This document shows positions 1 to 30,459 of a DNA stretch of 32,519 nt, in pieces; the first letter of the stretch is position 1, and each line of letters opens with the position of its first letter. The position numbers were made by a program, and so were the translations under genes. Source of the stretch: Chitinophagales bacterium (lineage in GTDB: Bacteria; Bacteroidota; Bacteroidia; Chitinophagales; Chitinophagaceae); contig JBIOGX010000001.1 of NCBI GenBank assembly GCA_044448445.1, positions 1 to 32,519 on the forward strand, read 5' to 3'. Below the pieces are notes generated by a model. That model had not been told where the DNA came from and searched no databases. It saw only the letters and a program-made list of their open reading frames with translations.

Positions 1-570
1 CAATGTGTGGATGCTGTAATTCATTATGGCTATGATACCAAGATCATGTTTAGCTCTGTGCGCAGTTCAGAGCATGTGCGCAATGCCATTAATATAGGCG
101 TACATACTATTACTGTACCGCTCAAAATATTGAAAGCATTAACCGATAATAATTTTACTACCGTAGGCACTGAGCAATTTCTGAGCGATACCAGATTAAT
201 GACCGTAAGGGTGAAAGAAGCGATCAATGGGGCGAATCCGCTCGTAACTACGGATATGAATATGAAGGACGCTATTGTAAAGATGACCGAATACGGCTTT
301 GGCTGCGTAACCGTGATAAATACAGACGGCAGCTTGAAAGGCGTGTTTACCGATGGTGATCTCAGGCGGTTATTGCAAAATGAAGGTGAGCATATTTTAG
401 GTAAGAAAATGGGGAGCCTTGATTTCAAAGCCCCTATAAGTATTGATGCTAATGCGCTGCTTAACGAAGCAGATGCGATATTTAAAAAGACGAAAGTAGA
501 TACTATACTGGTAACAGATAGCGGCAAGCCATTTGGAATGTTGGATATACAGGACTTAAAGAAATATTAA
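1..570 (+). CDS. Transaldolase/fructose-6-phosphate aldolase (TalC/FSA) family domain fused to a C-terminal KdsD/KpsF-type CBS pair; 5'-truncated
   Basis: Frame is open from base 1. YGYDTKIMFSSVRSSEHVRNAINIGVHTITVPLKILKALTDNNFTTVGTEQFLSD matches the TalC/FSA C-terminus pattern (ILxASxR..HV..A...GA...TxP..VL..L..HP.T..G...FL.DW). It is followed by two CBS domains with GVFTDGDLRR and GMLDIQDL, as in KdsD. Confidence 0.8.
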   Translation, partial: QCVDAVIHYGYDTKIMFSSVRSSEHVRNAINIGVHTITVPLKILKALTDNNFTTVGTEQFLSDTRLMTVRVKEAINGANPLVTTDMNMKDAIVKMTEYGFGCVTVINTDGSLKGVFTDGDLRRLLQNEGEHILGKKMGSLDFKAPISIDANALLNEADAIFKKTKVDTILVTDSGKPFGMLDIQDLKKY

Positions 571-574
571 ACGT

Positions 575-1282
575 ATGGCTGATATCGGGCACATAAAAAG
601 TTTTTTTAAGGGACATTTTCTGGCTCTGCCTGCTGTCATACAGGAAAAACTGTTCGGGGCAAAAGCTTTTGTTTTTGACTGGGACGGTGTTTTCAACAGT
701 GGTGTGAAAGACGAAAATGGTTCCAGTCCTTTTAATGAAGTGGATGCAATGGGCACAAATCTCCTTCGCTTCAATCACTATCTCCGTACAGGTAGCAATC
801 CATTTACCGCCATTATTTCGGGTGAGATGAATAAGGCTGCATTTACATTGGCAAAGCGGGAACATTTTGAGGCGGTATATTATTGTATGAAGAACAAAAA
901 AGAAGCCTTGTCTCATCTATGTGCTACAAACAACATTTTTCCTGAGGAGGTTGTTTATTTTTTTGATGATGTACTTGACCTTTCCATAGCAGAACATTGC
1001 GGCCTCCGCATTATGGTGGGCAGGGGGGCAAATCCATTGTTGCTAAATCTGGTACAGGAAAAGAATCTTGCTGATTATATTACTGCTGCTGATGGTGGTA
1101 ATAACGGCTTGCGTGAAGCCTCAGAATTGCTGATGGGATTAAGCGGACGATATGATGATACCATAATGGAACGCGTTCACTACACTGAACATTACCGGCA
1201 ATATATAGTTTTACGGAATACCCCTGAACCATCTTTTTATACAACTATAGGATCTAAAATCACAGCACATTCACCACAATGA
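575..1282 (+). CDS. KdsC/YrbI-like HAD phosphatase (divergent, 235 aa)
   Basis: HAD motif I FDWDGVF, motif II IISG, motif IV FFDDVLD, and C-terminal GGNNGLREASELL as in KdsC GG.GA.RE. Overlaps the kdsB start (ATGA). Confidence 0.75.
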   Translation: MADIGHIKSFFKGHFLALPAVIQEKLFGAKAFVFDWDGVFNSGVKDENGSSPFNEVDAMGTNLLRFNHYLRTGSNPFTAIISGEMNKAAFTLAKREHFEAVYYCMKNKKEALSHLCATNNIFPEEVVYFFDDVLDLSIAEHCGLRIMVGRGANPLLLNLVQEKNLADYITAADGGNNGLREASELLMGLSGRYDDTIMERVHYTEHYRQYIVLRNTPEPSFYTTIGSKITAHSPQ

Positions 1283-2022
1283 TAGCAGGTATTATTCCCG
1301 CACGGTATGCATCCTCCCGTTTTCCGGGGAAACCGCTTATAGATATACGGGGAAAAAGCATGATTCAGCGCGTATATGAGGAAGCGGCAAAAAACAAATC
1401 ATTGCAAAAACTGGTAGTTGCTACAGATGACAACAGAATATTACAGCATGTGCAATCATTCGGAGGCGAAGCGGTAATGACGGCAACACATCATCCGAGC
1501 GGCACAGACCGATGCTGGGATGCATTGCAGCAATTAGGCGCAGCATACAGGTACGTCATTAATATACAGGGCGATGAACCTTTTATTAATCCGGCCCAGA
1601 TTGATGAACTCGCTACGATATTAGCAGACAGCTCTGTAGAACTGGCTACCCAAATGATAGCCGTGCGCACTCATGAAGAATTATTTGACACAGGTGAAGT
1701 AAAGATCGTGCTGAATGACAAAATGGAGGCTTTGTATTTCAGCCGCATGGTTATACCTTTTATAAAGGGCGTGGATGAAGAAGAATGGCACTTGCACTAT
1801 AATTATTACCGGCACGTAGGGATGTATGCATACAGGCGAGATATACTTGAAAAAATAACCAGGCTTCCGGTATCTTCATTAGAACATGCAGAATCATTAG
1901 AGCAGTTGCGGTGGCTGCAACACGGATTTAAAATTAAATGCGCTGTAACACAATTTGAAAGCCATTGCATAGATACACCGGAGGACGTAGAAAAGGTGAT
2001 GCGCAGGATGGGAATAAACTAA
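1279..2022 (+). CDS. kdsB: 3-deoxy-manno-octulosonate cytidylyltransferase (CMP-Kdo synthetase)
   Basis: IIPARYASSRFPGKPL, HPSGTDR, NIQGDEP, ALYFSR, HVGMYAY and ESLEQLRWL motifs. Confidence 0.96.
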   Translation: MIAGIIPARYASSRFPGKPLIDIRGKSMIQRVYEEAAKNKSLQKLVVATDDNRILQHVQSFGGEAVMTATHHPSGTDRCWDALQQLGAAYRYVINIQGDEPFINPAQIDELATILADSSVELATQMIAVRTHEELFDTGEVKIVLNDKMEALYFSRMVIPFIKGVDEEEWHLHYNYYRHVGMYAYRRDILEKITRLPVSSLEHAESLEQLRWLQHGFKIKCAVTQFESHCIDTPEDVEKVMRRMGIN

Positions 2023-2060: not shown

Positions 2061-3608
2061 TTAATGCACTACTTTATAAACACATACCACAGTGCTGCTA
2101 AGCACAACAATGGAATATTCAACCGGGTTAGGAAAATCATTCGGGTGTCCCCTGAAATTGGTAATAAAATAATCTGCCTGGTCACATTCTACTAATTCAA
2201 TACGTTTTCTATCCCTTTCCTGTAGCATCATTACGTTGTTCCTTAATGGTTGGTCCCTGATGTAACATATTTTTATTGTTCCATAGGGCTTTACATGGAC
2301 AAGATGGTCTAATGCCTGCAGGTAGCTGGCTCCCCAATAGTCAAAATCATAATTTTTACGTAAATATTCTTTATCATGAGACACGAGTGAATTGAAATAT
2401 ACCTGCTGCAGTGGGTGGTTTTTGATCATGAAATAACTTATAAATCCCACTTGTATGATGCATGCAGACTGAACAATTAGCCTAAACTTTTTTTGATAGA
2501 CTTTATTAATAAAATAAAGCGACATGAGTATAAAAGAAGGGTAAATAAAATAGAGGTGCCGCCAATCATCATAAATTACGGAGTGCAGATACATCACCGC
2601 AAAGATGGGCATTAAAAAACTGCAGAGGTATAAGAGAAAATTACGGTCATTTGTATTTTTGAGAAAATTTAAAGGCTTTCTGAACATACCGATCATGATC
2701 CACACGATTCCCGCAAAGCCGGTAATAAGCCATAAAACAGGATTGGATATCAGGAACCAAATGGGAAAATAGTAATAGGGCAGATGCTGACTCATCTCAA
2801 ATTTGCCTGCTAATAAAACTTGTCCTTCCCAGATATAATGTGACATCTTATTGTAAGCTTTCATGAAATTGATCAGTGGGTTTCCCCATAAATATGGCCA
2901 TGATATATATAGGATAAAACAGAACCCTGTTAAAAACAACATAGTGTTGATGATTGTTTTCTTTGGGTTTTTCTTACTGGTAATATCTGTAACAAGGTCT
3001 GTTAATAGGAAAAAAAGTACAAGAACACCCAACATAATTCCCATAACCCGTATGCCTGTAGTATAACCACATGTAATCCCAAGTATTAAAAACAATGCAG
3101 CTTTTTTTTCTTTAAACGCAGCATGAAAAATAGTAAACGATATGAGAAACATTGATAAGGCAGGTATATCCTTAGTATTAAAAAATGAATGAGCGTAAAT
3201 ACGTGGTGCAAATGCCAGCATAAAAAACCCCAAACAAGCAAGGAACTGATTTTTGAACAACCTGTATATTAATACATAACCGAAAAGCACACTGATGAGG
3301 AAAAAAATATGCGTAACAAGATGCCGCATCAGGTAAATATCACGTTCATCAGTGATATTCATCTTTCTCTGAATGAATATTAACGGTATTTCAAAACCTG
3401 CACCATATTCTTTATTGGACAATGTTAATAACTGTTTGCTTTCATGAGTAACATAGTCATAATTGGTTCTCCCTATGTCAACCTGGGTTGGTTCATCCCA
3501 GCTGATCCCATAGTCCTGGTAGGTAAGCAGGCCAATTAGCATTGCAACAAGAAATAATAATATTCCCGGGAAATAAGTGGACAGGCTCTTTTTTATATTC
3601 ATGTTCAA
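2061..3608 (-). CDS. GT-C fold membrane glycosyltransferase (ArnT/PMT_2-like)
   Basis: Many TM helices, an N-terminal loop acidic motif YGISWDE, PRIYAHSFFNTKDIP, IYDDWRHLYF and DYWG. TTG start at 3608 or ATG at 3602. Confidence 0.8.
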   Translation of the reverse strand: MNMNIKKSLSTYFPGILLFLVAMLIGLLTYQDYGISWDEPTQVDIGRTNYDYVTHESKQLLTLSNKEYGAGFEIPLIFIQRKMNITDERDIYLMRHLVTHIFFLISVLFGYVLIYRLFKNQFLACLGFFMLAFAPRIYAHSFFNTKDIPALSMFLISFTIFHAAFKEKKAALFLILGITCGYTTGIRVMGIMLGVLVLFFLLTDLVTDITSKKNPKKTIINTMLFLTGFCFILYISWPYLWGNPLINFMKAYNKMSHYIWEGQVLLAGKFEMSQHLPYYYFPIWFLISNPVLWLITGFAGIVWIMIGMFRKPLNFLKNTNDRNFLLYLCSFLMPIFAVMYLHSVIYDDWRHLYFIYPSFILMSLYFINKVYQKKFRLIVQSACIIQVGFISYFMIKNHPLQQVYFNSLVSHDKEYLRKNYDFDYWGASYLQALDHLVHVKPYGTIKICYIRDQPLRNNVMMLQERDRKRIELVECDQADYFITNFRGHPNDFPNPVEYSIVVLSSTVVCVYKVVH

Positions 3609-3740
3609 GAGAAAAAGGATTCGGTTATAGCAACAAAAGTATAGTACAAATTCTTTAGAGCAAAAAATGTCATTTTATAAGAATGATCACATAGTTACGA
3701 AAAATCTTCCTCCGAATATACCTATCTGCTCCCGGATAGC

Positions 3741-4193
3741 TTATACTTTCACTTTTACAACTATTTTCTTTACCATAGCACTATCATGAACCTTTATGCA
3801 AGGCATATGCATGTCTGTGGGAAAGAATACCATGAATGTCCCAGTTTCCATTTTGGTAAAGAAAGAAGGGGTATCAGGGAATAGCATGAAGTCATTATCT
3901 GCATCATATTCCTTGGAAGGAGTCTGGCCATTTAGTAATGCATGTCCTACAAGTTCCTCTCCTTTTATCATATACTGGACATCAATGTATTTTATGTGCG
4001 TTTCCATTTCTTCATTAGTTGTGTCCATCGTTTTATATTCCTGTACGATAGCAAATACATCATCGCCATCAATGGCATATTTACCCAGGGCCGCCTCATT
4101 GAGGTCTGTGGTACGGAGATAATGAAATGCCTTGCCTATCCTTTTATGAACAGAGGTATATTTTTCGGCATTTTCCAATAGGTCTATGATCAT
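3741..4193 (-). CDS. YhcH/YjgK/YiaL (NanQ/TabA, DUF386) family cupin
   Basis: MIID start, ETHIKYIDVQY, FFPTDMHMP and C-terminal KKIVVKV are typical of the family. Confidence 0.9.
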   Translation of the reverse strand: MIIDLLENAEKYTSVHKRIGKAFHYLRTTDLNEAALGKYAIDGDDVFAIVQEYKTMDTTNEEMETHIKYIDVQYMIKGEELVGHALLNGQTPSKEYDADNDFMLFPDTPSFFTKMETGTFMVFFPTDMHMPCIKVHDSAMVKKIVVKVKV

Positions 4194-4337
4194 ATAAGCA
4201 GATTATGAGACGGTAAAGTATGAAAAATAATATAACAGGGCGAATAGCCCGCAGTTGTACCGTTTTTTTAACTTTTGACTTAACGCAATGACTAGTACCT
4301 TTAGGACAATTTTATTTCCCTTTTATAATAACAGACC

Positions 4338-5762
4338 TTGAAACAGGAAAGCATATCGGTATTTGATATTTTTAAGATAGGAGTAGGCCCCAGCAGTTCT
4401 CATACACTTGGCCCATGGCGCGCAGCATTACGCTTTATAAGTACTGTAAAACACAGAGGCCTGGATAAAGTAAGGTCTGTAAGGGTGCTTCTTTATGGTT
4501 CACTTGCAAAGACCGGAAAAGGCCATGGCACAGATATAGCTATAGTACTGGGATTATGTGGTGAAGACCCTGTTACATTTGATGTGAACCAGATCACCCC
4601 GCGTATGGAGCATATTGCCGGGCACAGAAGATTACTTGTGAACGGTAAAAAAGAAATAATCTTTGACCCGGCTATTGACGTTGTTTTTCTTTTTGATGAA
4701 AGCCTTCCGTACCATCCCAATGCCCTTACTTTTTTATGTTCTTTTAATGATGGTGATGAAATTGCGGAGACCTATTATTCAGTAGGCGGAGGCTTTGTAG
4801 TGAAAGAAGGAGAAGAAGACAACGATGAAGGTTTTGTAACCCTGCCTTACCCCATAGAGAAAGCCGAATACTTGATAGCCGCCTGCGAAAAAACAGGATT
4901 AGGAATATCAGAAGTGGTAATGGAAAATGAAAAAACATGGCGGTCTGAAGAAGATATAAAATACGGCATATTGGCAATATGGGAAGTTATGCGTGATTGT
5001 ATATTCCGGGGCGCTCATATTGGTGGAGAATTACCCGGTGGCTTGCAGGTATCACGCCGTGCTGAGGCCCTAAATACAAAACTAACCGGTGGCAAACCAT
5101 ACAAAAATTATGATGAATGGCTTAATGTAATTCGGAGCGGAGGGCAATCATTTAAATATACGCTCGATTGGGTCAGTTGTTTCGCTCTTGCAGTGAATGA
5201 AGAGAATGCGTCTTTCAGCCGGGTGGTAACCGCGCCTACAAATGGCGCCGCAGGAGTAGTGCCCGCAGTGTTACTTTATTTTATCGCTTTTTGCGATGGT
5301 AATGATCCTGGCAAGATCATTAAGTTCCTGCTGACGGCTTCTGAAGTAGGCAGTATATTTAAAAAAGGTGCTACGTTATCGGCAGCTATGGGCGGTTGCC
5401 AGGCTGAGATAGGCGTTTCTTCTTCAATGGCTGCTGCGGCGCTGACGGAAGCATTGGGGGGTACTGTTCAGCAGTGCCTGATGGCCGCCGAGATAGCTAT
5501 GGAACATCATCTTGGCCTCACCTGTGACCCAGTGGGCGGCCTGGTGCAGGTGCCCTGTATAGAACGTAATACCATGGGCGCGATAAAGGCTATCACTGCG
5601 TCCCAGCTTGCCTTGCAGAGCGACCCGGGAAAGGCGCGTATTTCCTTAGATGCTGTAGTTAATACCATGTGGGAGACCGCACTGGATATGAACCATAAGT
5701 ATAAAGAGACGGCTGAGGGAGGCCTTGCAGTGCAGTTGCCGATAAGTTTGAGTGAGTGCTGA
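4338..5762 (+). CDS. sdaA: L-serine ammonia-lyase, Fe-S dependent, single chain
   Basis: [51 protein letters not shown] and [26 protein letters not shown] start. Confidence 0.96.
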
Positions 5763-5821: not shown

Positions 5822-6658
5822 ATGAATAAGACATATCCCTTTTCTTCAGAGATCTTCGCAAGCCAGGATACCAACTCCAATAATTTCTTCCTTATGGCCG
5901 GGCCATGCGTGGTGGAAAATGAAGCGGTAATAATGAATGCCGCTGAGAAAATAGTACGTATTTGTGAACGCCTGAAAGTGCCGCTTATATTCAAATCATC
6001 ATACCGGAAAGCAAACCGCAGCCGCATGGATAGCTTCTCTGGCATAGGCGATGTGCCTGCGTTGGAGATATTGAGCAAGGTAAAGAACACCTTTGATGTG
6101 CCAATAGTAACAGACATTCATGCTGCTGAGGAGGCTGCGATGGCTGCAGAATATGTGGATGTGCTGCAAATACCCGCCTTCCTGTGCAGGCAGACAGACA
6201 TACTGATAGCCGCAGCACAGACCGGGAAAGTGGTGAATGTGAAAAAGGGGCAATTTCTTTCACCGGAGTCTATGCGTTTTGCTGTTGACAAAATACAGCA
6301 GAGCGGCAATGATAATATTATCCTTACCGACAGGGGCACTATGTTCGGCTACCATGATCTTATAGTGGACTACAGAGGCATACCTATTATGCAGGCTATG
6401 AATGTACCGGTTGTCCTGGATTGTACCCATTCGTTGCAGCAACCAAACACGGCCAGCGGCGTTACCGGCGGCAACCCGCTAATGATAGAGACCATTGCGC
6501 GCGCAGGCATAGCGGTAGGCGCTGACGGCTTGTTCATTGAGACACACCCTGATCCGGCACATGCTAAATCAGATGGGGCTAATATGCTGCACCTTGATCT
6601 TTTAGAACCACTCCTTGAAAAACTGATACTGTTAAGGCAGGTGGTGAATAAATGGTAG
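5822..6658 (+). CDS. kdsA: Kdo-8-phosphate synthase
   Basis: AGPCVVE, KANRS, TDIH, LQIPAFLCRQTD, KKGQF, DCTHSLQ and FIETHPDP..AKSDG. The Cys in AGPC suggests the metal-dependent class. Confidence 0.96.
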   Translation: MNKTYPFSSEIFASQDTNSNNFFLMAGPCVVENEAVIMNAAEKIVRICERLKVPLIFKSSYRKANRSRMDSFSGIGDVPALEILSKVKNTFDVPIVTDIHAAEEAAMAAEYVDVLQIPAFLCRQTDILIAAAQTGKVVNVKKGQFLSPESMRFAVDKIQQSGNDNIILTDRGTMFGYHDLIVDYRGIPIMQAMNVPVVLDCTHSLQQPNTASGVTGGNPLMIETIARAGIAVGADGLFIETHPDPAHAKSDGANMLHLDLLEPLLEKLILLRQVVNKW

Positions 6659-12046: not shown

Positions 12047-14368
12047 TTATCTGATAACACACGACTTAACAGTAACATTTCCATTTGTCATATCAGCAAA
12101 ACGAATATAATAAACACCTTTAGCCCAGGCATTTACCTGTATGTCTGACTTGCCGTTTATTTCACCTTGCCATACTGTTTGTCCGACCGAGTTACATACC
12201 ATAACATGGAAATTATTATTACCGGTAGTGATGTGCAAAATATTAGTTGCAGGAATGGGGAATATTTTAATGTCACCTGCGGTGGTATTAACTTGTTTAA
12301 CACCGGTAACAGGCAAGCTTGAATTATAAGTAATTGTGAAATTTGCGCTATTGATGTTAAAAAACACATTGCCTGAACCTTTTACTTTAAAACGCACCGT
12401 TGACGACCAATCAGCAGCGGGGTTAGGTAAAGTAATACTTGCGGTACCTGTATTAGGGTAGTTACCAATATAGTCAGGCCATGTATTACCCCCATCGTGC
12501 GATAAGTATATGTCAACATTAGCAGCGCTGACAGGGGCGGCATTTGTACCTACCACATTCCAGGTAACCGTTTGTGTGCTGCCGCCTATATAAGAAATAC
12601 CTGCGGTGCCCTGGCTGGTAACTTTAAAACCGGCAAATGTAGATGTCTGAACCGCATTAATATGAATTGAGTCATCGGGGAACAGGAAGCAGCCGTTACC
12701 GTTGAGCATATCGCGCACTACCATTCTAAAGGTCATATAGCGAGCAGTATCCGGGGCTTTTTCTCCTTCGTTACCTTCAGTACCTGCATTACTCAACACA
12801 CCGGCAAGAACCATACTAACTTTGGGAAACACGCGGGTAGGATTATAAGCAGGGTTATAACTACGGAAGATAGGCCCTTTAAAAAAGGTTTGGTTCAGCC
12901 TTTTGCCAAAATCTCCCAGGTTATATTGCGTCCATCCGTAAGTGATGGCGGTATCAGCTACAGAATCAACAGCAACAGGGCCGATGAGTTCAAACGGTGT
13001 TTTATAAGGAATGGTGTATGTTGCGGAAAAAGTGGGTAAATAAACCAGTTTATTATTTGTAGCTGTTGACACAGCGCAGGCATTTTCTGAGCCTGCAAGA
13101 TATCCCTGGATCTGCACAAGGCTTGAAGCGCTGAAGTAGGAATTACTGTGCATCTGCAGATCATCCGGGGAGCAGATTCCTGCATAATCCATAATTGTAC
13201 CTCCACTACCAGGCTCATAGGCACATGTTGACACCGCATTGCCGCCACAGCTACCATCATTATTGTTATTAAATGTATGCTCCGAACCGTATTCATGGCC
13301 CATTTCGTGCGCTACGTAATCAATATCAAAACCATCGCCTACAGGAGTTGGAGACCCGGTACAACTTTGCGCTTTTTGACCATTATTACACACTACTCCC
13401 AAAGAAGATATACCACCGCCACCAGTTGTAAAAACGTGGCCAATATCATAATTTGCAGAACCTACCCTATTGGTACATTGGGTCTGATTTGCAGATAAAC
13501 AGGCGCCACCATTGTTGTCAATGGTATTAAAAGGGTCATTACCATTTGTACTGCCGGTATTTGTCGGCCAGATCAAAGTATCTTCCTTACTGCAAAAATT
13601 CATTTGGACAGAAAATTCATGATTGTAAACTCCATTGATACGGTTCATAGATATAGTCATTTTGGCAAGAGCCTGGGCAATAGTTGGCGTTGAAAGGCCT
13701 GTAGCAGCCTGGCAGTAAAAATGGTCTGCAGATAAAGCAAGTCTGTATGTGCGTAAAGTATAACCATTGCTGGTGCGTTGTTGCAGCTTAGGCAATTGTT
13801 TTTGCATCATATCCATGCTTTCTCCTGCAGGGCCTATTTCATCTTCACCTTTCACAAGGCATTTCATACGATCACCGATTGCACGGGTTTCATCCCTTTT
13901 ATAATGCACCATATAAAAACCATCATGATAATTGTCGAAAGGATCTACAAATGATGTATTGTCTCTATCATAGATCATAGCCGTAAAGCCATAAAGTGTA
14001 AATTCCATTTTGGCAGTTACACGCTGATCGTTTGCCGCCCTTCCGGTAAAGGTTTTAATGTCGGGGTATCTTGCTGCAAGATCATCGGGCATCATAGGAG
14101 TCTGCCATACTATAAAGTCCCGGAAGGAACCGTCAGGCATAGGCAATGTGATGGTGATCCCCTCATTGGGGTTAGCTGACAGATTCCACATTTGCAGTTT
14201 TAATGTGGGTTCGTCCAATGTGTAAACAAGAAAACCTGAAGGATGCATGACCTGTAAATTTTTTGGCGCCTGCCCCGGATCAACCTGTTGCCAGAGGTTT
14301 TCAGCGTAGCCAGTACAAGTGCCGAGTACACCTGCGCATAGAAGCAATCTTGTAAATAGTCTTTTCAT
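12047..14368 (-). CDS. Secreted reprolysin-like (M12B) zinc metalloprotease with T9SS type A CTD
   Basis: Signal peptide MKRLFTRLLL (ATG 14368), prodomain, LRTYRLAL, YDIGHVF, HEMGHEYGSEH zinc motif, Met-turn GGTIMDYAGIC, and CTD IFPIPATN...KGVYYIR. Confidence 0.92.
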   Translation of the reverse strand: MKRLFTRLLLCAGVLGTCTGYAENLWQQVDPGQAPKNLQVMHPSGFLVYTLDEPTLKLQMWNLSANPNEGITITLPMPDGSFRDFIVWQTPMMPDDLAARYPDIKTFTGRAANDQRVTAKMEFTLYGFTAMIYDRDNTSFVDPFDNYHDGFYMVHYKRDETRAIGDRMKCLVKGEDEIGPAGESMDMMQKQLPKLQQRTSNGYTLRTYRLALSADHFYCQAATGLSTPTIAQALAKMTISMNRINGVYNHEFSVQMNFCSKEDTLIWPTNTGSTNGNDPFNTIDNNGGACLSANQTQCTNRVGSANYDIGHVFTTGGGGISSLGVVCNNGQKAQSCTGSPTPVGDGFDIDYVAHEMGHEYGSEHTFNNNNDGSCGGNAVSTCAYEPGSGGTIMDYAGICSPDDLQMHSNSYFSASSLVQIQGYLAGSENACAVSTATNNKLVYLPTFSATYTIPYKTPFELIGPVAVDSVADTAITYGWTQYNLGDFGKRLNQTFFKGPIFRSYNPAYNPTRVFPKVSMVLAGVLSNAGTEGNEGEKAPDTARYMTFRMVVRDMLNGNGCFLFPDDSIHINAVQTSTFAGFKVTSQGTAGISYIGGSTQTVTWNVVGTNAAPVSAANVDIYLSHDGGNTWPDYIGNYPNTGTASITLPNPAADWSSTVRFKVKGSGNVFFNINSANFTITYNSSLPVTGVKQVNTTAGDIKIFPIPATNILHITTGNNNFHVMVCNSVGQTVWQGEINGKSDIQVNAWAKGVYYIRFADMTNGNVTVKSCVIR

Positions 14369-14531
14369 TTTCTTTTGTTTTAAATAATTATTTAGAATAA
14401 GATTTCTCATTAAGTGAAGAGGATATACAGGTGTACACAAGTACACGCAAATTACGTATTTTTAACTTAAAAATAATAATCAGCGAAAATTTTGTGTACC
14501 TACACCTTTTGCCAGTATATTAGCCATCAGC

Positions 14532-15119: not shown

Positions 15120-18100
15120 ATGTATTTTAATGGTACAAAATGCTGTTCTCTTATATTTTGCAGTTTCTTATCGCTGTCGCTTATAGCGAAAGATGCAAAG
15201 CCGGCTATCTCACAAGGCTTAAGAAAGCCATTGTGTTTCGTAGAGAATAAGGGCCAGGTTACGGACCAGGAAAACAATCCGCGAAATGATATACAATACA
15301 AGCTGTCCACGCCCGGCATGAGCCTGTATGTTGGTAACGGGCAACTGCACTACCAGTTTAAAAAAATAGAAGGCAATACGCCGGCTACAACACAAGTATC
15401 CGGTTATAATATGAATGTTACCTTGCTGGGGGCAAACCCTAATGCCAAAATTATTTCCGCTGACAAGCAGGAATACTTTGAGAATTATTACGTCTCGCAA
15501 TATTCAGAAAACGGATTTACCGTTCATTCCTATAACAAGATCATTTATAAAGATGTATATCCCGCTATTGACTGGGTATTATATGTAAAGAATAATAAAG
15601 TAGAATATGATTTCGTAGTGCATCCCGGCGGAGATATTCACGATATACGAATCGCATATAACGGCGCCACCGCACTCAGCCTCACCAAAGACGGTGGTAT
15701 ATCTGCCGAAACGCCTATGGGCCGTATCGGGGAGAAAACGCCTTATGCTTATGAAACTTCATCAGGAAAAACTGTTGCATCAAAATTCGTTTTAAAAAAT
15801 AATGTTATCAGTTTTGAAACCGGAGCATACGAAGGCTCCCTTACCATAGACCCCTACCTTTTATGGAGCACTTACTTCGGCGGTACGGCTGAAGATGTTG
15901 TCACATCGGTAAAAGAAAGCGCCGGGAACACTTATGCAGGCGGCTATACTGCCAGTACCGGGCTGTCATTCGGAGCAGGTATTTTCCAGGCTGCAAATGC
16001 GGGAGGAACTTATGATGCCTTCGTAGCGAAATTCACTAATACAGGAACTTTGACTTGGGCTACTTATTTTGGCGGCACAGGCGACGACCAAGGCACCTGT
16101 GTAGCATTTGATAATACCGGCACTAATCTATACCTGGTTGGTTCCACCACTTCTCCGGCAACCGGCTTAACAGCTCCCGGCACAGCATGGCATACAACAA
16201 ATAATGGCGGCACAGATGGTTTCCTTATTAAATTTTTAGCTAGTAATGGTTCAAGAGTATGGTGTACATTTTTTGGCGGTGCCGGTAATGATGTTATCAA
16301 TGGAGTTGCCTGTGATGGTACCGGCAATGTATATATTACCGGCCAGACAGCAAGCGCCACACTTATTACTTTTGGCGCTGCATACCAGGCAACATTAGAC
16401 GGCGCCAATGATGCTTTTGTTGCACAATTTAATGCAGCAGGCGCTATGCAGTGGTCAACCTATTATGGAGGCCCCTTGCAGGAAAATGGATTAGCAATCG
16501 CATGCAATGCGGCAAATGATGTTATCATTACCGGGCAAACAAACAGTACCACAGCCATGTCTTCCTTTGGAAATACTTTAAACGGCGCAAATGATGCATT
16601 CGTTGCAGTATTTAACACGAGCGGCGCACGGCTTTGGGGCAATTATTTCGGCGGGCCCGGTACAGAGCAAGGCAATGGTGTAATTTGCGATCCGGCCACC
16701 AGCGACATAATCATCGTAGGCAACACTACCAGCGCCAGTGGTATCGCAAGCCCCAATGCATACCAGATTGCTTATGGCGGTGGTGTACAAGATGCTTTCG
16801 TTTCCTGTATTACCAACACAGGCACAGTGTCATGGAGTACCTATTATGGCGGTAATGATATTGATTACGGGCAAGGTATTTGCCTTGACGTATTCAGAAA
16901 TATCGTGATTGCCGGCGGCACCATGAGCACTTCAGGAATTGCGAGCAGCACAGGCGGTTATCAAACCACCATAGGCGGCAGTTATGATGCTTTCGTAGCA
17001 AAATTAACTCCCCTTGGGCAAAGGCTTTGGGGCAGCTATTACGGTAGCACGCTGTATGATTTCGCAAATGCCGTGGCCTGCGACCCGACAAACAACGAGG
17101 TGGCAATAGCAGGTTATACTAACAGTACAGCAGGCATTGCAACCGCCGGCACTTATGGTGGCGGCACTTATGATGGCTTTGTTACAAAATTTTACAAGGA
17201 TACGTTCGTAACCATTAACCAACCCTATACCGATACCCTGCTTTGCCCCGGAGGAACGTTTGTCATAACCTATTCTGTAAACTATAATTTTCAGTTAGGG
17301 AACATTTTTACCGTAGAATTGTCTGATGCTTTTGGCAATTTTGCTGCTCCTGTTACCATTGGCACGATTACATCAAACGCTTCGGGCGCTATATCCTGCA
17401 CTATACCTGCACTCACTGCCCTGGGTACTGCTTACCGCATACGCATACGCGCCAGTAACCCTGTATATATCTCTCCTGACGATATGCTGGATATACAAAT
17501 AGACAATGCTACTCCCAATACAACTGCCACAGGCACTACCCCAACATGCGTAGGTGGTAGCATATCATTATTTGACGCAGCCACCTACTCAGTTACAAGC
17601 TGGACCTGGGCAGGGCCAAATGGTTTTAGTTCAGGAGTGCAAAACCCTACTGTGCCAGGCCCGATTACAATCGCCGATGCCGGAACATATTCCGTTACCA
17701 CAACCCATGCCGGCTGCCCGCCGTCAACAACTACTGTTACAATTGTAGTGAATACCACCATCCCGCCCACGCCTTCAAGTAGTGTAAACGGACATTGTGT
17801 AGGCAGTGCGATATATCTTTTCGCAAATCCTGATACAACTGCAGGCGGCATTACTTACAGTTGGTCTGGGCCGTTGGGATTTTCATCAACTTTGCAAAAC
17901 CCTGTCATACCCATAGGCTCAACTGCAAATGCCGGATATTATTATGTAACTGATGTTGTGGCCGGGTGTCCTTCCGGCATTGATTCTGTTTACGTAACCG
18001 TATCAAATACCACTCCTGTTTCGATAGCCATTACAGTAAGTCCCGGTGATACGGTTTGCCAGGGTACAAATGTAACCTTTACGGCAACCACTTCTACGGG

Positions 18101-18836
18101 TGGCGCTACCCCCACTTATCAATGGGTAAATGGCAGTACACCTGTTGTAGGCGCTATCTATAGCACTTGGTCAACGCCAACGCTAATCAATGGCAATCGC
18201 ATTTATTGCATACTCAACAGCAGCCTTAACTGCCCCTCACCAACACCGGCTAACAGTAACGTAATTACTATGGACTTAATCAATAATTCTCCGCTTGTTT
18301 ATATCAGTGCAAGCGCTGGTCCGTCTGTTCCTCCGGGTAGCCCGGTTACGTTTTCTTCTATTGCTTATAACGCAGGCCCGGGCGCCTTATACCAGTGGTC
18401 GCTCAATAGTACAAATGTGCCGGGAGCCACTAACGCTACTTACACTTTACCGAGTGTAACAAGCTATGATACGGTATCTCTTATCGTAACCAGCATTATG
18501 GCTTGCGCAACTCCTAACTTTGCAAAAAGCACACTTGTAGTACACGCACATACTGTAAGTGTGGCAAATGTTACCGCTACATTCGATAATTTAGAATTGT
18601 TCCCTAATCCGAATAACGGCAGCTTTACGCTGAAAGGAGACCTTCAAAATACCAATACCGTATCCATCGACATATTAAATACGCTTGGGCAGGTAGTGTA
18701 TGGCGGCAAAATAACAACGCCAGGTACACAACTAAATAAAACCATTGATCTCTGCAACCTGCCCAATGGTATTTACCTGTTGCATATTTACCGGGAAGGC
18801 GAAAGTAAAATGCTTCGCTTCTCGGTTCAACATTAA
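15120..18836 (+). CDS. Large secreted SBBP (beta-propeller) repeat protein with Ig-like domains and T9SS type A CTD
   Basis: N-terminal FVENKGQ...YKDVYPAID...EYDFVVHPG...IDP domain, repeated W(S/A)TYFGG...D...DAFVAKF units, WTWAGPNGFSS / PTYQW Ig-like units, and CTD LFPNPNNGSF...NGIYLL. Confidence 0.9.
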   Translation: MYFNGTKCCSLIFCSFLSLSLIAKDAKPAISQGLRKPLCFVENKGQVTDQENNPRNDIQYKLSTPGMSLYVGNGQLHYQFKKIEGNTPATTQVSGYNMNVTLLGANPNAKIISADKQEYFENYYVSQYSENGFTVHSYNKIIYKDVYPAIDWVLYVKNNKVEYDFVVHPGGDIHDIRIAYNGATALSLTKDGGISAETPMGRIGEKTPYAYETSSGKTVASKFVLKNNVISFETGAYEGSLTIDPYLLWSTYFGGTAEDVVTSVKESAGNTYAGGYTASTGLSFGAGIFQAANAGGTYDAFVAKFTNTGTLTWATYFGGTGDDQGTCVAFDNTGTNLYLVGSTTSPATGLTAPGTAWHTTNNGGTDGFLIKFLASNGSRVWCTFFGGAGNDVINGVACDGTGNVYITGQTASATLITFGAAYQATLDGANDAFVAQFNAAGAMQWSTYYGGPLQENGLAIACNAANDVIITGQTNSTTAMSSFGNTLNGANDAFVAVFNTSGARLWGNYFGGPGTEQGNGVICDPATSDIIIVGNTTSASGIASPNAYQIAYGGGVQDAFVSCITNTGTVSWSTYYGGNDIDYGQGICLDVFRNIVIAGGTMSTSGIASSTGGYQTTIGGSYDAFVAKLTPLGQRLWGSYYGSTLYDFANAVACDPTNNEVAIAGYTNSTAGIATAGTYGGGTYDGFVTKFYKDTFVTINQPYTDTLLCPGGTFVITYSVNYNFQLGNIFTVELSDAFGNFAAPVTIGTITSNASGAISCTIPALTALGTAYRIRIRASNPVYISPDDMLDIQIDNATPNTTATGTTPTCVGGSISLFDAATYSVTSWTWAGPNGFSSGVQNPTVPGPITIADAGTYSVTTTHAGCPPSTTTVTIVVNTTIPPTPSSSVNGHCVGSAIYLFANPDTTAGGITYSWSGPLGFSSTLQNPVIPIGSTANAGYYYVTDVVAGCPSGIDSVYVTVSNTTPVSIAITVSPGDTVCQGTNVTFTATTSTGGATPTYQWVNGSTPVVGAIYSTWSTPTLINGNRIYCILNSSLNCPSPTPANSNVITMDLINNSPLVYISASAGPSVPPGSPVTFSSIAYNAGPGALYQWSLNSTNVPGATNATYTLPSVTSYDTVSLIVTSIMACATPNFAKSTLVVHAHTVSVANVTATFDNLELFPNPNNGSFTLKGDLQNTNTVSIDILNTLGQVVYGGKITTPGTQLNKTIDLCNLPNGIYLLHIYREGESKMLRFSVQH

Positions 18837-24996: not shown

Positions 24997-27900
24997 TTAC
25001 CTCGCCACCACTATCTTTCCCTTGCTTATCATGCTTTTTTCACTGTTTGCCTGGTAGAAGTAAACCCCCGTAGGCTGATGGCTCGCATCCCAATACGACT
25101 TACCGGTATTATTACCCGTATGCAGTTCCATCACTTTTTCTCCGAGTATGTTTGTTACCACTATCCTTATATCACCATTCGCCTGCGGTATATTGTAGGC
25201 AAAGGTTACCGTCCCGTTTGCAGGATTAGGATATACCGTAAACTGATCGCCCGCTTTTTTCTTAATTCCGTCAACAGGGGTATTCAAATTACCCGCTACC
25301 GGTTTCTTTGGCGGTGGAGGAGCGGTTCTATAATTGGAAGCATTTGAAAGGATACAAGGCACAGTATAAGGAGGGGAAGAAAATACCCCGCTGCTGACGC
25401 TGGTAAGGTTGACGGTAACATTCCTAAGGAGTTGCTGACCGATAAATGGAGTAAATACAGGCACGCTCGTGGTATCTAACTTGGCTATCTCCATACTGTC
25501 TAACCGCAATATATTCCTGCCATCTTTTTCGGCTTTATATAAAACCTTCCATATCTTTGCATAGGCTTGGTCAGCATTATTAACATTTGTGTTTCCACCC
25601 TGGGCTGTATTCCCCATATTATTCTGCTGCGTAGTGTCTGTACCTTGTGTGCTGTCTGTCCCTGTTCCCACCTGCTGCACAGCATTATTAGGATTTAGGC
25701 TCTGAAATATACTGTCCGCCACATCATATTGCCCGCGGTAGTTGTAGTAGCCTACGCGGTCATTCTGCGGCCAGAACCCTTTCAGATTCTGCACCCAGGT
25801 ATCAAGGCTGTCAAGGCCAAAATAATAGCTGTTGCTGTCCCGCATGTAATAAACGCTGGTACTGTCTGTGCATATACCCGCGCCTGTAGTATCATTAACG
25901 CTTACAGCCGTGTCTAAACAGGTTCTCAGCGACATCATGATTACATTGGCGTCATCACACGCAGCCATCACCGAGATATTGATCGCCGCTTCCAGCGAGG
26001 TACGCGGCGTGGTTCGTTGCGCGGCGTTCAGCACGGTGTCGGTATAATCGGTGGTATAATCATTCTGGATATCCACGCCGGTATAGTAATTTACCATAGC
26101 AGCCAGGAAATCACCGTTGTGCAAATTATCAGGGTTCAGCACAAGGAGGCTTACCACCTCGCTGTCGGGCCACTTGCTCACATTAAAGAACTCCTGCACC
26201 ACAGCCTGCGAGAGATAAGGGGAATGTGAAATACAGGTATCATACAATAGCGCCAGCGAGGCCGAATCAGTCGTAGTGTCTATAGCAGATATTAGATCAT
26301 ACGTTAAGCCGCCCATGTCTATCAGGCTGTTATACGTTTCCATCGAATCTCTCCATGCCTCTTTGTTACTAAAGAACGCTCCCTTGTAGGTTTCCAATAC
26401 ACCCGGGTCTATTCTAACAGGTAAACCGGTACTTCCTCCCGTATTTAATGTTGACGAGCATGATTTAGTGTAATTGGTAGCGGTAGCTATATTGGGAGAT
26501 GACAAGTGAGGATTTTCAGCCGTGGCATTGGAAGTATCGTAATAATAATTTATCGCTCCGCTGTTATTAATGAACCTGTTCGTTGAATTGGAAAAAGTAT
26601 TACCTGCCGTGATATAAGCGCCTCCCGTATAGCCGCCCTGGTATTGTGCTATTCCCTGGCCAATCAATCCATCGGGCGCTACTTGTATATCCGTGTAATC
26701 AGTACCGAAAGTATTGCAGAGTACCTGTAACCCGGTAGTAAAACCGCCGCCGGTCGTCCTGTTCTCTCCTATCGCATATACGCCGTATGTCAGGCTGTCA
26801 AATGAATTGAGATATACTTTATTTTGCTGAAAAATGCTTGTACAGGTATTGGCCACAACAGCGCCGAAGTTATGCCAGTAGGTAGTCTGTGGCGGAGACC
26901 CTATAAAATTATTACCCTCCATCCTGAAATTGTATGCGTTTTGTATCAGTATGCCTATATTCTGGCCGCAGTTGGTGGAATCCTCGGTTATATCCGTCAT
27001 GGGCACTCCATGGCCTATCTTAAAATTGCACAGCGTAGTAGAGGTATTATTTTCTGCCGATACATTGACCCCAACAGAGCATGAGTCAAAATCTGCCTGG
27101 TCTATGCTTATGGGTATGTCTGCGCTATAAACTCCCTGTATGGATATGGCATTTCCGAAACCGCTGAACCGCGAGGGTATCCAGGAACCACCTATGCAAC
27201 TGCCTGTACCTGCTGAGGCGTAGCCGCTGCAATAGCGCGCTACATAAAATCCGCCGCCATCAACAGCGTGTATCCCTTCGCCAAATCTATTATCCGCAGT
27301 TGTGGTGTAGCGGTTGAGGAATTGGCAACCGCTGAAAGCAACACCGTCCACATCGCTAAGAAAGCTGTGATACCAGAAAGGATAACCCCAGCTATTGCCC
27401 TTGTAGCCATTATCCAGCAGGAAGGTGCAGTTACTGAAACCAGATAGGTTGTCATGCAAACCGGAGACATCATAATTATGATAGCCATAAAACGAAACGC
27501 TCACATGATTGTTTAAAAAAACTGAGTTTGTTGCCCAAATAGCCCCGCCCGTAGCTGTATCCGAGTTCCACCTGTCGCAGTTGGATACCGCATAGCGCGC
27601 GTTCTCTATCACCGAATTTGTTATCTGCACTCTCGCGTGGTGGGCAAAGTCGTTTTGCGGAGAGAAAGTGCCGCCATTCCCCAGCGCCTCTATCCCAAAC
27701 CACATACACCCTTCACACTCATTGGTAATTTTACTCCCATTAACCACCAGCTTACCACCCGGTTCTACAATGATCACACCGTTTTTCGGCATGTGTACCG
27801 TTATACTGTTCATATCCAGTTCAGCCCCAGGCTCTATCACTATCGCCCCGGTTATGTATTTATCCGTGGTCCAGGTAGTATTGGTAGTAATGGTATCTCC

Positions 27901-30459
27901 GCCGGCGACAATATCCCATGGGTTACCAAGATCAGTTTCCCATATACCCCGCCCAAAAGTGGATACCCGCAATTTTTTTGCACAATAATTAAACTCCATA
28001 TCGGTTATATTGCATGCAGGCAATCCATCATTAAAACATTCCCATGTAATACCGTAAAAAGGAGTATCTGCAGGGTTAAATGTGCTGAAATCACAATAAT
28101 AAACACCTAAAGCAGTGGCACAGTAAAGCTGGTCGTTGCTGCCATGCCTGTACTTTATTTTATTTACAGCAAGTGGTGGCAGGCCGCGCGATACATCACA
28201 CCAGTTTTGACCGTAATTTGGCGAATATAATAAACGGTTATGCCTGTATTGAGCGGAATCTTTAAAATGCCCCCAGTCAGCGCCGCCAAGCGCCACCCAT
28301 ATTCTACCTGGCTGCTGTGGGTCTGTTTCTATATTTTCTATCGGCCACCATTGAACTTGACTTGGCGTTATATTTGTCCAGTTCGGATTTGATGAAGTTG
28401 CCTGAGAGGTAAGAAATAGTTTCGGATTAGTAGTAGGACCACCGTATGCCATATCGCGGTAAGCCACATATACCATGTCAGTATCTGGTTCAGCAATACA
28501 TATAGAATTTACTTTGGGGCAATTACTCATATTAATTGGGTCATTACTACGAGTACCAAATAAATCATTCCACGTAACACCGAAATCGGTTGATTTCCAT
28601 ACCGTCCGCTCACCTATATACAGGTTATTGTTTTTGTCCACGTACCAGGGACGGATATTATTGTTTAGGTTGCTCCAGTAAGCTTCATTGCATGTATCGC
28701 CCGGGTCATTAACCCCAAAATACGTATCAGTACTTGTAGAAAAGTCAATTCCACCTAATTGAAATTCCGGTGATGATGGACTTCCGGGCTCTATATATTC
28801 ATAAATTCCTTTCTTTACTCCATTCCCTGCAAATATTGGGATTTGGCTATCACTCGAAAAAACACTATTCCATTGAGAAGGCCTGTTCTTCCTGTAGGTA
28901 AACGCGCCATTATCCTGCGCCCCACCCATCATCAGGTCATCTTCACCTTCCATATTGCTCATGCCAAAAAATTGGGTAATGCACAGGCTATCTCCTGTAA
29001 TGCTTTCAAAGTTTGGATTACCGTATCTCTTTTTTACCACGCCTCCATCTGTTGCCCCATATAGCACATCATTGATCCCATTTGTTGAGGTAGTTGGAGC
29101 ATATAACGTGATATACCTTGCATCAGCATGAGTGCTTCCCTGTATGCCACCGGTGCCGCCATAATACTGAAAATCAGTGCCTCCGTTTACTGATTGATAA
29201 AAATTTTCACCACCATTGTGTAGCGTACAATACATAATTTGTGGATTTACCGGATTTACAACTAAGTACTGCATACTCCAGGATACCGTATCTGTCCCGG
29301 ACATAAACCAAAATACATTATTGCTTATTACTGATATATTAGCAGGGGAAAGAGGTGTTTTTATTAGATGTTGATGTTCATTCTTTACTTCTGCAAACAT
29401 ATATACTGTATCTGTCGCAGACAGGGAAATATCGTCAATACCGGTTATTATATCCCCGGCAGCGGGCATGGTGACATTTAAATTCGTCCAGGCTGTAGTT
29501 GCGGTATCATAAGTCCAAAGGTGGGCAGTATCATCTGCGGCATTGGTACTAAAAACAACTTTACCCGGGCTTGCTATAGTAAACTCCATATCTGAAATCA
29601 GGCTATCAATACCCAGCGTGGGTGTAATATTTTGCCATGCAGCCGATGAGTTTGGCTTCACTAAAATAGTACTCTTTTGACCCGTGGAGTCACTTAAATA
29701 AGCAAATAATTTTTCAGTGCCAGGCATATACATCATTTTCAAATGAGGTTGGCCGGTGAAATACGAAAAGCCCGCAAGACTATTAAACGCGGCATCAAAA
29801 TACCAATGATCACCGCTATCATTGGAATAAGCAGCGCCTATGCCCATTCCACTCCAGTCTGCGAGGTAAACGTAAATATTGTTACTGTTGAGGGGATCAA
29901 CGGCAAGGCTTACCATACCCATAGTACCCGGTATTTGATTGCCGGTATAACCCACACTGATGCCATCGCTGATATTATGCCATGTCAGCCCGCCGTTCCT
30001 GCTTTTCCACAGCCCGCCATACGTTGCAGCAAGTATATAATTGGTATCTGTGGGGCATACCCAAACACTATTAGCCCTACCCTGGTTTTCGTAGCCGCCA
30101 TAATTATTATTAAAGGGCCCCAGGCATTTCCAGTTGCCCCCGCCGCCTATGCAGTAGGCGTCAGGCTGCATGATAACGCTCATCGTGGTTCTGGCGGCAG
30201 GCAGCCACGCTTCTGAATCGGCAGGTGCGTTACCGCAAAAATATTTTGCCATAAAAGATGCCCTGCGTGTAAATTCGTTTACCTCGCTTCCCTCCGAAGT
30301 ATCAGTTGGGTGGGCGGCTCGTAATTGCTGTTGCTTGGCCAGAACTGCCTGCGGGTAAGTCATTGCAGGCATGTTGTATCTTAGCGCCGAATCAACTAAA
30401 GTTTGCGCATGGAGTATGCCCACATTCATTAGCAGGCATAAAAGTGCTATCTTTTTCAT
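24997..30459 (-). CDS. 1820-aa secreted protein: BNR/VPS10-like beta-propellers, beta-helix region, helical region, T9SS type A CTD
   Basis: Signal peptide, Asp-box repeats (SRNGGLTW, SNDSGDHW, SVNGGTDF, STDFGVTW, SPNYGQNW), STFGRGIWE, beta-helix-like N/S/F-rich turns, and CTD VYPNPANG...GVYFY. Confidence 0.88.
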   Translation of the reverse strand: MKKIALLCLLMNVGILHAQTLVDSALRYNMPAMTYPQAVLAKQQQLRAAHPTDTSEGSEVNEFTRRASFMAKYFCGNAPADSEAWLPAARTTMSVIMQPDAYCIGGGGNWKCLGPFNNNYGGYENQGRANSVWVCPTDTNYILAATYGGLWKSRNGGLTWHNISDGISVGYTGNQIPGTMGMVSLAVDPLNSNNIYVYLADWSGMGIGAAYSNDSGDHWYFDAAFNSLAGFSYFTGQPHLKMMYMPGTEKLFAYLSDSTGQKSTILVKPNSSAAWQNITPTLGIDSLISDMEFTIASPGKVVFSTNAADDTAHLWTYDTATTAWTNLNVTMPAAGDIITGIDDISLSATDTVYMFAEVKNEHQHLIKTPLSPANISVISNNVFWFMSGTDTVSWSMQYLVVNPVNPQIMYCTLHNGGENFYQSVNGGTDFQYYGGTGGIQGSTHADARYITLYAPTTSTNGINDVLYGATDGGVVKKRYGNPNFESITGDSLCITQFFGMSNMEGEDDLMMGGAQDNGAFTYRKNRPSQWNSVFSSDSQIPIFAGNGVKKGIYEYIEPGSPSSPEFQLGGIDFSTSTDTYFGVNDPGDTCNEAYWSNLNNNIRPWYVDKNNNLYIGERTVWKSTDFGVTWNDLFGTRSNDPINMSNCPKVNSICIAEPDTDMVYVAYRDMAYGGPTTNPKLFLTSQATSSNPNWTNITPSQVQWWPIENIETDPQQPGRIWVALGGADWGHFKDSAQYRHNRLLYSPNYGQNWCDVSRGLPPLAVNKIKYRHGSNDQLYCATALGVYYCDFSTFNPADTPFYGITWECFNDGLPACNITDMEFNYCAKKLRVSTFGRGIWETDLGNPWDIVAGGDTITTNTTWTTDKYITGAIVIEPGAELDMNSITVHMPKNGVIIVEPGGKLVVNGSKITNECEGCMWFGIEALGNGGTFSPQNDFAHHARVQITNSVIENARYAVSNCDRWNSDTATGGAIWATNSVFLNNHVSVSFYGYHNYDVSGLHDNLSGFSNCTFLLDNGYKGNSWGYPFWYHSFLSDVDGVAFSGCQFLNRYTTTADNRFGEGIHAVDGGGFYVARYCSGYASAGTGSCIGGSWIPSRFSGFGNAISIQGVYSADIPISIDQADFDSCSVGVNVSAENNTSTTLCNFKIGHGVPMTDITEDSTNCGQNIGILIQNAYNFRMEGNNFIGSPPQTTYWHNFGAVVANTCTSIFQQNKVYLNSFDSLTYGVYAIGENRTTGGGFTTGLQVLCNTFGTDYTDIQVAPDGLIGQGIAQYQGGYTGGAYITAGNTFSNSTNRFINNSGAINYYYDTSNATAENPHLSSPNIATATNYTKSCSSTLNTGGSTGLPVRIDPGVLETYKGAFFSNKEAWRDSMETYNSLIDMGGLTYDLISAIDTTTDSASLALLYDTCISHSPYLSQAVVQEFFNVSKWPDSEVVSLLVLNPDNLHNGDFLAAMVNYYTGVDIQNDYTTDYTDTVLNAAQRTTPRTSLEAAINISVMAACDDANVIMMSLRTCLDTAVSVNDTTGAGICTDSTSVYYMRDSNSYYFGLDSLDTWVQNLKGFWPQNDRVGYYNYRGQYDVADSIFQSLNPNNAVQQVGTGTDSTQGTDTTQQNNMGNTAQGGNTNVNNADQAYAKIWKVLYKAEKDGRNILRLDSMEIAKLDTTSVPVFTPFIGQQLLRNVTVNLTSVSSGVFSSPPYTVPCILSNASNYRTAPPPPKKPVAGNLNTPVDGIKKKAGDQFTVYPNPANGTVTFAYNIPQANGDIRIVVTNILGEKVMELHTGNNTGKSYWDASHQPTGVYFYQANSEKSMISKGKIVVAR

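Follow-up and report, generated by a model that had tools for sequence, protein, structure and literature searches.

What supplies arabinose 5-phosphate (A5P) to the Kdo genes that open contig JBIOGX010000001.1 of the Chitinophagales bacterium assembly GCA_044448445.1? A5P isomerase is held to open the pathway to Kdo (3-deoxy-D-manno-oct-2-ulosonate), a sugar of lipopolysaccharide cores and many capsules. The window analyzed here (32,519 nt, positions 1 to 32,519 of the forward strand) begins with an open reading frame (ORF) that joins the end of a transaldolase-like barrel to a CBS pair of the type found in the A5P isomerase KdsD. Sequence comparisons across genomes and metagenomes make it quite likely that this fusion is a nonorthologous supplier of A5P to Kdo-8-phosphate synthase (KdsA), replacing KdsD, such that one step of a known pathway has likely been taken over by nonorthologous displacement. 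For its chemistry, we tentatively propose a lysine-aldimine (Schiff-base) ribose-5-phosphate/arabinose-5-phosphate 2-epimerase.

A transaldolase-type barrel fused to a KdsD-type CBS pair

The ORF (nt 1 to 570, forward strand) is truncated at the 5′ side, since base 1 of the window is also base 1 of its contig, C1, in an assembly that is 60% complete; the N-terminal catalytic part therefore lies off the contig, as an earlier note on this sequence had stated. What remains is the 3′ part of the gene for a conserved protein of 337 aa with a TalC fold and a CBS pair, matching residues 149 to 337 of the full-length relative P0002 at 95% identity. Pfam recognizes TAL_FSA at aa 4 to 53 (E = 2.6e-6) and two CBS stretches (E = 8e-14), and the best NCBIfam matches are to the CBS portions of KpsF/KdsD/GutQ and to the C terminus of fsa_talC, each under its cutoff; no NCBIfam model claims the fusion protein at its cutoff. 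The note had read the ORF as a TalC/fructose-6-phosphate aldolase (FSA) C terminus joined to a KdsD/KpsF-type CBS pair bearing the motif GVFTDGDLRR (aa 114 to 123, nt 340 to 369), with which the Pfam, NCBIfam, and PDB matches agree. The architecture is common to all 120 homologues listed (334 to 349 aa, 78 to 95% identity, 98 to 100% coverage of the fragment), whose source names point to Flavipsychrobacter. This rules out an assembly chimera at the junction, and the fusion is real rather than an artifact. Lys86, Glu57, His110, Cys130, and Leu132, discussed below, lie upstream of the contig start and are read from P0002; Ser167 and Arg169 are the substrate-site residues inside the window itself.

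The AlphaFold2 model of P0002 has high confidence along its whole length (pLDDT, 95.9), and its barrel, a triosephosphate isomerase-type barrel of the TalC kind, superposes on the short transaldolases 1vpx and 3s0c with a Foldseek root mean square deviation (RMSD) of 1.4 to 1.5 Å. It belongs to the PF00923 superfamily by fold, by a Schiff-base lysine on strand 4, and by its Asp6/Arg135/Ser167/Arg169 site, and no solved structure exceeds ~35% identity to it. In alignment with the Thermoplasma acidophilum transaldolase (TAL), Asp6, Glu60 (57 in the fusion), Lys86, Asn108, Arg135, Ser167, and Arg169 are kept, and three positions are altered: Thr110 to His, Ser130 to Cys, and Phe132 to Leu. Relative to the short TalC enzymes, there are further changes of Ala166 to Ser and Ser58 to His or Gln. 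We compared 318 distinct barrel sequences, in which His110 defines a group of 241, about half of them close relatives; all 241 have Asp6, Thr26, Glu57, Lys86, Ser167, and Arg169, so that the Schiff-base lysine whose status the note had left to be checked is kept throughout, and 240 have Cys130 and Leu132. The remaining 77 barrels mostly carry Thr/Ser/Phe at positions 110/130/132. The change of Asn28 to Thr is a trait of a subclade only (164 Thr, 77 Asn), and position 55, which belongs to a considered metal site (His55/Glu57/His110/Cys130), is Gln in 138 of the 241. A FastTree phylogeny places the His110 sequences together on one side, without strong support, except for four nested degenerate copies. 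These copies (P0126, P0127, P0135, and P0149) are TAL-CBS paralogues that have lost Lys86, Asp6, and His110 while keeping the CBS motif and are possibly regulatory subunits.

The residues that tell TAL from FSA, by which the note had proposed to classify the protein, fit neither. A TAL (EC 2.2.1.2) would have Glu60 and Phe132 with Thr110/Ser130, and here only the Glu is kept; FSA would have Gln59 and Tyr131, which we take to be its diagnostic pair in agreement with the title of 4xz9, and here Glu57 and Leu132 stand in their place. Full-length members score 161 bits against the TIGR00875 cutoff of 246. Because His110/Cys130/Leu132 are conserved and both diagnostic pairs fail, these enzymes are, on residue evidence, a distinct subfamily predicted to be neither TAL nor FSA, and neither of the reactions put forward in the note is the natural reading. 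The short TalC transaldolases (1vpx from Thermotoga maritima, 3s0c from T. acidophilum, and 3r8r from Bacillus subtilis) share the fold (RMSD, ~1.5 Å), ~35% identity, and catalytic residues with the fusion family, which differs in His110/Cys130/Leu132/Ser166, in its C-terminal CBS pair, and in its linkage to kdsA. Escherichia coli FsaA (1l6w) and the TalB variant F178Y belong to the same superfamily and act on A5P by way of a Schiff base at a lysine (an activity as A5P aldolases, in an excerpt of PMC9947464), but have Gln/Tyr where the fusion has Glu/Leu, are ~25% identical to it, and use a cosubstrate for which no supply is evident in the case of the fusion. A separate, ordinary TalC, ~35% identical to the barrel, occurs in most genomes of the genus, including that of the window, which argues that the barrel is not the housekeeping TAL.

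The closest PDB structures to the CBS pair are the CBS pairs of A5P isomerases (4o9k, the best, E = 2e-13; 3fna; 3k2v), and a CBS tree (130 columns, five outgroups, motif-selected rows) groups it with that of KdsD at an SH-aLRT of 94. The CBS pair is thus of the KdsD type; the SIS domain of KdsD/KpsF/GutQ is missing, with only positions 152 to 265 of TIGR00393 matched (60 to 65 versus 204 bits). The fusion resembles KdsD/KpsF/GutQ in CBS type, size, and inferred pathway step, and CBS-less versions exist of both; it differs in its unrelated catalytic fold, in its separate cassette, and in nearly never sharing a genome with them. KdsD is subject to feedback by CMP-Kdo, and CBS pairs have a ligand-binding role. 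The motif is present in 202 of the 241 His110 domains, and since CBS-less members of ~216 aa occur at metagenome loci, the CBS pair is accessory.

Distribution relative to KdsD and association with kdsA

Among 53 genomes of the genus, 42 have the fusion and 10 have KdsD over the cutoff; one (G021) has both, 9 have KdsD only, and the 2 with neither are 57% and 65% complete. An apparent triple fusion to KdsC in G021 is a read-through across an N gap and not real, and G064 carries a fusion interrupted by a single internal stop, together with a KdsD-like CBS fragment that lies at the edge of a contig. The window's own genome (60% complete) yielded no KdsD. The pattern recurs in an unrelated lineage: in the gammaproteobacterial family of genome G080 (41 genomes, without completeness figures), the fusion is present in 36 and KdsD in 4, no genome carries both, and 1 carries neither. 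Here the native kdsD-kdsC slot lies between a murA-like gene and lptC-lptA, and both genes are gone from it in all four fusion genomes examined, which were picked for long contigs and have no N in the interval.

KdsD over the cutoff, and likewise any match to its SIS half, was absent from all 17 further fusion genomes, which come from Bacteroidota, Desulfobacterales/Desulfobacteraceae, and Gammaproteobacteria (one duplicates G004, and three belong to the G080 family); a genome-contig scan that selected on the CBS motif yielded at least 16 fusions. For comparison, 71 of 100 genomes in a draw from the phylum have KdsD. In five fusion genomes examined, no SIS match was A5P isomerase-like: those found were GlmS-sized, ~300 to 360 aa, or weak frames of ~200 to 240 aa, unrecognized by the KpsF model. 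None of the 80 metagenome loci with the enzyme (the best 80 of 351, from a scan with distant members) has KdsD, and of five KdsD-less control genomes, four also lack kdsA, G027 being the exception.

The fusion does not occupy the chromosomal place of kdsD, where the note had expected it, but a separate cassette. At nine loci in the genus, the usual order is waaA–kdnA–kdnB–variant kdsA–(sometimes a PIN gene)–fusion–kdsC-like–kdsB, but at several loci waaA does not adjoin the other genes, and G018 lacks kdsC (the names kdnA and kdnB follow PDB entries 5k8b and 5k8c). The cassette of the genus encodes all steps from Kdo-8-phosphate synthesis to transfer, A5P supply excepted; none of the 10 kdsD loci of the genus has kds genes. 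In the window, the position of the variant kdsA falls off the contig, and no fragment of it, of the missing gene half, of kdnB, or of waaA was found elsewhere in the same assembly. Because relatives have this second, variant kdsA directly upstream of the fusion, the kdsA at 5822, which is intact and 43 to 47% identical to the cassette type, is by this comparison not the partner of the cassette.

The variant kdsA (variant and canonical forms were classed by score, with motifs checked on subsets) occurs in 41 of the 42 fusion genomes of the genus, the exception being the window's genome, and in none of the nine KdsD-only genomes. In 34 of the 42, whose operons include kdsB and often waaA, no other kdsA was found. 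The three of 300 phylum genomes with a variant kdsA all have the fusion and lack KdsD. Across 17 wider genome loci, the variant lies directly upstream in 14 and elsewhere in the other three genomes. Upstream sequence of at least 1 kb is available for 63 metagenome loci, and 61 of these have kdsA (46 KDN type, 15 KAN type). The variant keeps its metal and phosphoenolpyruvate residues, and its invariant KDNRS, PAYL-MQ, H-IR-YGIPS, and CDA motifs are seen at L045:4417-5247 and orthologues; across metagenome loci, motifs intermediate between variant and canonical form a gradient. In some genomes of the genus, variant kdsA and the fusion are separated by a PIN-domain gene (L045:5557-5976, L043:5566-5976). 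In the gammaproteobacterial family, a two-gene cassette sits between two waaA-like genes (L061, L062, L064), kdsC having gone from the lpt locus along with kdsD. Decay of the resident kdsA of G080 was ruled out, its motifs being near canonical.

Close homologues of the Shewanella 8-amino-Kdo enzymes KdnA and KdnB lie upstream in the genus operon (E = 6e-130 and 2e-122), and the genus probably makes 8-amino-Kdo. An obligatory link was ruled out: unlike in a required partnership, many fusion loci lack kdn genes, and KdnB homologues are present in KdsD genomes too. Two kinds of KdnB homologue (~85 to 95% and ~45% identity) coexist in six genomes of the genus (L045:2100-4411; G004, G001, G058, G007, G060, and G021).

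Proposed reaction and its alternatives

The near-exclusion in two unrelated lineages, the linkage to kdsA, and the empty native kdsD slot together support well the core idea of the note, that an aldolase-fold domain supplies A5P without KdsD; universal co-presence of kdsD, unlinked kds genes, and a chimeric junction were all looked for and not found. That the product is one accepted by a normal KdsA, namely A5P, is suggested by the partner genes: at 13 metagenome loci, the same His/Cys/Leu enzyme stands beside a kdsA with canonical KANRT and PAFLCRQ motifs, and seven fusion genomes without detected KdsD (the window's included) keep an intact canonical kdsA, whose pairwise dN/dS (<0.1, or with saturated dS) adds weak support. 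Taken as a whole, a TalC-fold enzyme with a KdsD-type CBS pair that replaces KdsD, most plausibly by epimerization at C2, is probably the best explanation of these comparisons.

Since A5P is fructose 6-phosphate (F6P) minus its C1 hydroxymethyl, an aldopentose 5-phosphate held on Lys86 through C1 would fit the unchanged phosphate site, and A5P reportedly binds TAL covalently. Because the cassette has no gene for a cosubstrate, conversion of ribose 5-phosphate to A5P would be the simplest overall reaction. In the proposed cycle, Lys86 would bind C1 of open-chain ribose 5-phosphate as an aldimine, Glu57 would make and break the imine, and Arg135/Ser167/Arg169 would hold the phosphate in the same way as that of F6P. 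The paired changes of Thr110 to His and Phe132 to Leu on neighboring strands, which add bulk at 110 and remove it at 132, would make room for an imidazole near the position of the tyrosine that protonates the enamine in FSA. C2 could then invert via an enaminol, or via retro-aldol and re-aldol of a glycolaldehyde unit that stays bound to the enzyme, and A5P would be freed by hydrolysis; the CBS pair, where present, would add end-product control. The enzyme would move as a cassette with kdsA (often variant) and the kdsC-like gene, the resident kdsD likely being lost after its arrival. An excerpt of PMC9947464 describes FsaA as giving only A5P from glycolaldehyde and glyceraldehyde 3-phosphate (G3P) and TalB F178Y as giving ribose 5-phosphate too.

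Several points weigh against this reading. G021 carries both fusion and KdsD (contamination, 4%), and G027, a Bacteroidota genome of three contigs and 100% completeness, carries a canonical kdsA but lacks both KdsD and the fusion; other unrecognized A5P sources thus exist, and absence of KdsD alone is no proof of role. Related genomes are not independent cases and the majority of all genomes are metagenome-assembled, so we count two lineage-level replicates plus scattered cases and apply no statistical test. The 13 canonical-kdsA cases cover loci only, not the KdsD status of whole genomes, and a pairwise dN/dS of <0.1 spans history before kdsD loss. The commonest partner, the variant KdsA, has pocket changes (A47D, F103Y, R106M, Q188R, S197K, and S232C, in Aquifex numbering) at residues whose roles we presume, so that its substrate may not be free A5P. 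Loops L2, L7, and L8 of KdsA gate the active site, according to an excerpt of PMC6650799. An excerpt of PMC8208507 gives TalB F178Y and Fsa as 2S,3R-selective, the product of glycolaldehyde and G3P being taken as A5P, which weakens the ribose-5-phosphate precedent and leaves it uncertain. Side-chain geometry rests on alignment and on assumed residue roles in the T. acidophilum TAL and FSA, and His110 and Cys130 presumably line the pocket that binds the ketose C1 hydroxyl, which would suit a ribulose-5-phosphate isomerase equally well.

Such an isomerase would keep the role and change the chemistry: a noncovalent enediol mechanism through Glu57, His110, Lys86, and Asn108, similar to that of triosephosphate isomerase, would convert ribulose 5-phosphate to A5P as a true analogue of KdsD, from the same substrate and with no cosubstrate, and the new His110, Cys130, and His/Gln55 presumably surround the ketose C1 position, as we take it from the T. 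acidophilum TAL. The complete Schiff-base apparatus is nevertheless kept in 241 of 241 domains, and for an isomerase an imine with either pentose would be off path; we regard this mechanism as rather unlikely. Aldol formation of A5P from free glycolaldehyde and G3P, raised in the note, has a precedent in FsaA (PMC9947464, in excerpt), and the loss of Phe132 with the new His could provide an enamine proton donor; the route is improbable given that the Gln/Tyr pair is absent, that no glycolaldehyde-forming gene recurs in the neighbor clusters scanned, and that the same excerpt puts the glycolaldehyde affinity of FsaA as too low for in vivo flux from ethylene glycol. The note's other route, a transaldolase acting on D-glycero-D-ido-octulose 8-phosphate and G3P to give A5P and F6P, fed by transketolase, would account for a Glu57 kept as in TAL and for metabolites that occur in the proposed L-type pentose pathway, which itself has limited confirmation only (PMC4470864, in excerpt). 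Yet the changes cluster at the C1 to C3 end with the phosphate site unchanged, Phe132, which separates transfer from aldol release, is lost, and a supplying gene is again not recurrent among the neighbor clusters scanned, so this reaction is very improbable.

Two further explanations concern the role itself. The enzyme and the variant KdsA could form a coupled route whose intermediate is another or a channeled aldose phosphate rather than free A5P, possibly toward a Kdo stereoisomer or derivative; the invariance of the changed pocket (KDNRS, PAYL-MQ, H-IR, CDA) and the occurrence of the variant only together with the fusion in the genomes tested favor it, but the canonical partners at the 13 loci, the gradient of intermediate motifs, and the place of the variant as sole kdsA in most fusion genomes of the genus, in operons with kdsB and often waaA, render it unlikely. 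Least of all do we expect an ordinary transaldolase or noncatalytic regulator merely coresident with kds genes: the fold is that of TalC and degenerate paralogues without Lys86 exist, but a separate TalC is present, the TIGR00875 cutoff is missed, and neither role would explain the loss of kdsD in two lineages.

If it is an epimerase, the fusion would, as a tentative proposal, be the first of its type and bring the reaction types of the transaldolase fold to three, having captured the feedback CBS module of KdsD, coevolved with a remodeled Kdo-8-phosphate synthase, and spread as a cassette across phyla and viruses; we found no description of this transaldolase-CBS family in the literature, chiefly open access. 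Were the reading true, a pathway hole would be filled in whole lineages (42 of 53 genomes of the genus, 36 of 41 of the gammaproteobacterial family), a recurring "transaldolase" annotation would be corrected, and the TAL/FSA fold would gain a new reaction of interest to biocatalysis. The remodeled KdsA would be a second natural variant for the study of aldose-phosphate selectivity.

Features, neighboring genes, and viral contigs

The arrangement downstream of the fusion is as the note had it: a KdsC-like gene follows after a 4-nt gap and overlaps kdsB by 4 nt, with kdsA 3.8 kb further on (Table 1). The KdsC-like protein is longer (235 aa) and far under KdsC cutoffs (51 versus a curated 208 bits); the gene lies 3′ of the fusion in many relatives and is missing from some cassettes (L043, L050).

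Table 1. Features of the window and the canonical kdsA of genome G027
Feature	Position	Strand	Basis or remark
Remodeled TalC-fold barrel, C-terminal third (residues 149-212 of 337)	1..192	+	Pfam TAL_FSA; TIGR00875 stretch; P0002
Phosphate-site motif M-F-S-S-V-R of barrel	nt 46-63	+	within 1..192
KdsD/KpsF-type CBS pair, up to stop codon	196..570	+	Pfam CBS x2; TIGR00393 positions 152-265; 4o9k; CBS tree
Divergent KdsC-like HAD phosphatase, cassette gene 3	575..1282	+	best match KdsC NF007019, E = 1e-13, below cutoff
kdsB, CMP-Kdo synthetase	1279..2022	+	TIGR00466 and PRK05450 over cutoff
Resident canonical kdsA (KANRS/PAFLCRQ/HSLQQ)	5822..6658	+	over cutoff
G027 canonical kdsA	C1:1950924-1951685 (L164)		A5P source unexplained by KdsD or fusion

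A viral scan with P0002 as the query gave no match. A search with an alignment of distant members brought up four IMG/VR contigs (fragments) that have the gene, which adjoins kdsA in at least four cases, and none of them has KdsD; GenBank phages gave, among the matches listed (12 of 431), only barrel matches of ~35% identity, none covering 80% of the query. Viral contigs with kdsA and a remodeled TAL comprise L246-L249, L188-L191, L217, and L218, several of which add genes for a cytidylyltransferase, a DUF115/MptE-like protein, a short-chain dehydrogenase/reductase, a zinc alcohol dehydrogenase, and a methyltransferase next to capsid genes. It is possible that these sets are a virus-encoded ulosonate glycosylation module.

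Between kdsB and kdsA (2061 to 5762), the window encodes a PMT-like membrane glycosyltransferase (reverse strand), a YhcH/YjgK/YiaL protein (reverse strand), and a serine dehydratase (forward strand). Large secreted proteins are encoded at 12047-14446, 15120-18836, 24997-30459, and 30555-32162: an M12B metallopeptidase and three proteins (1238, 1820, and 535 aa, the first with DUF7948) that have type IX secretion system C-terminal sorting domains.

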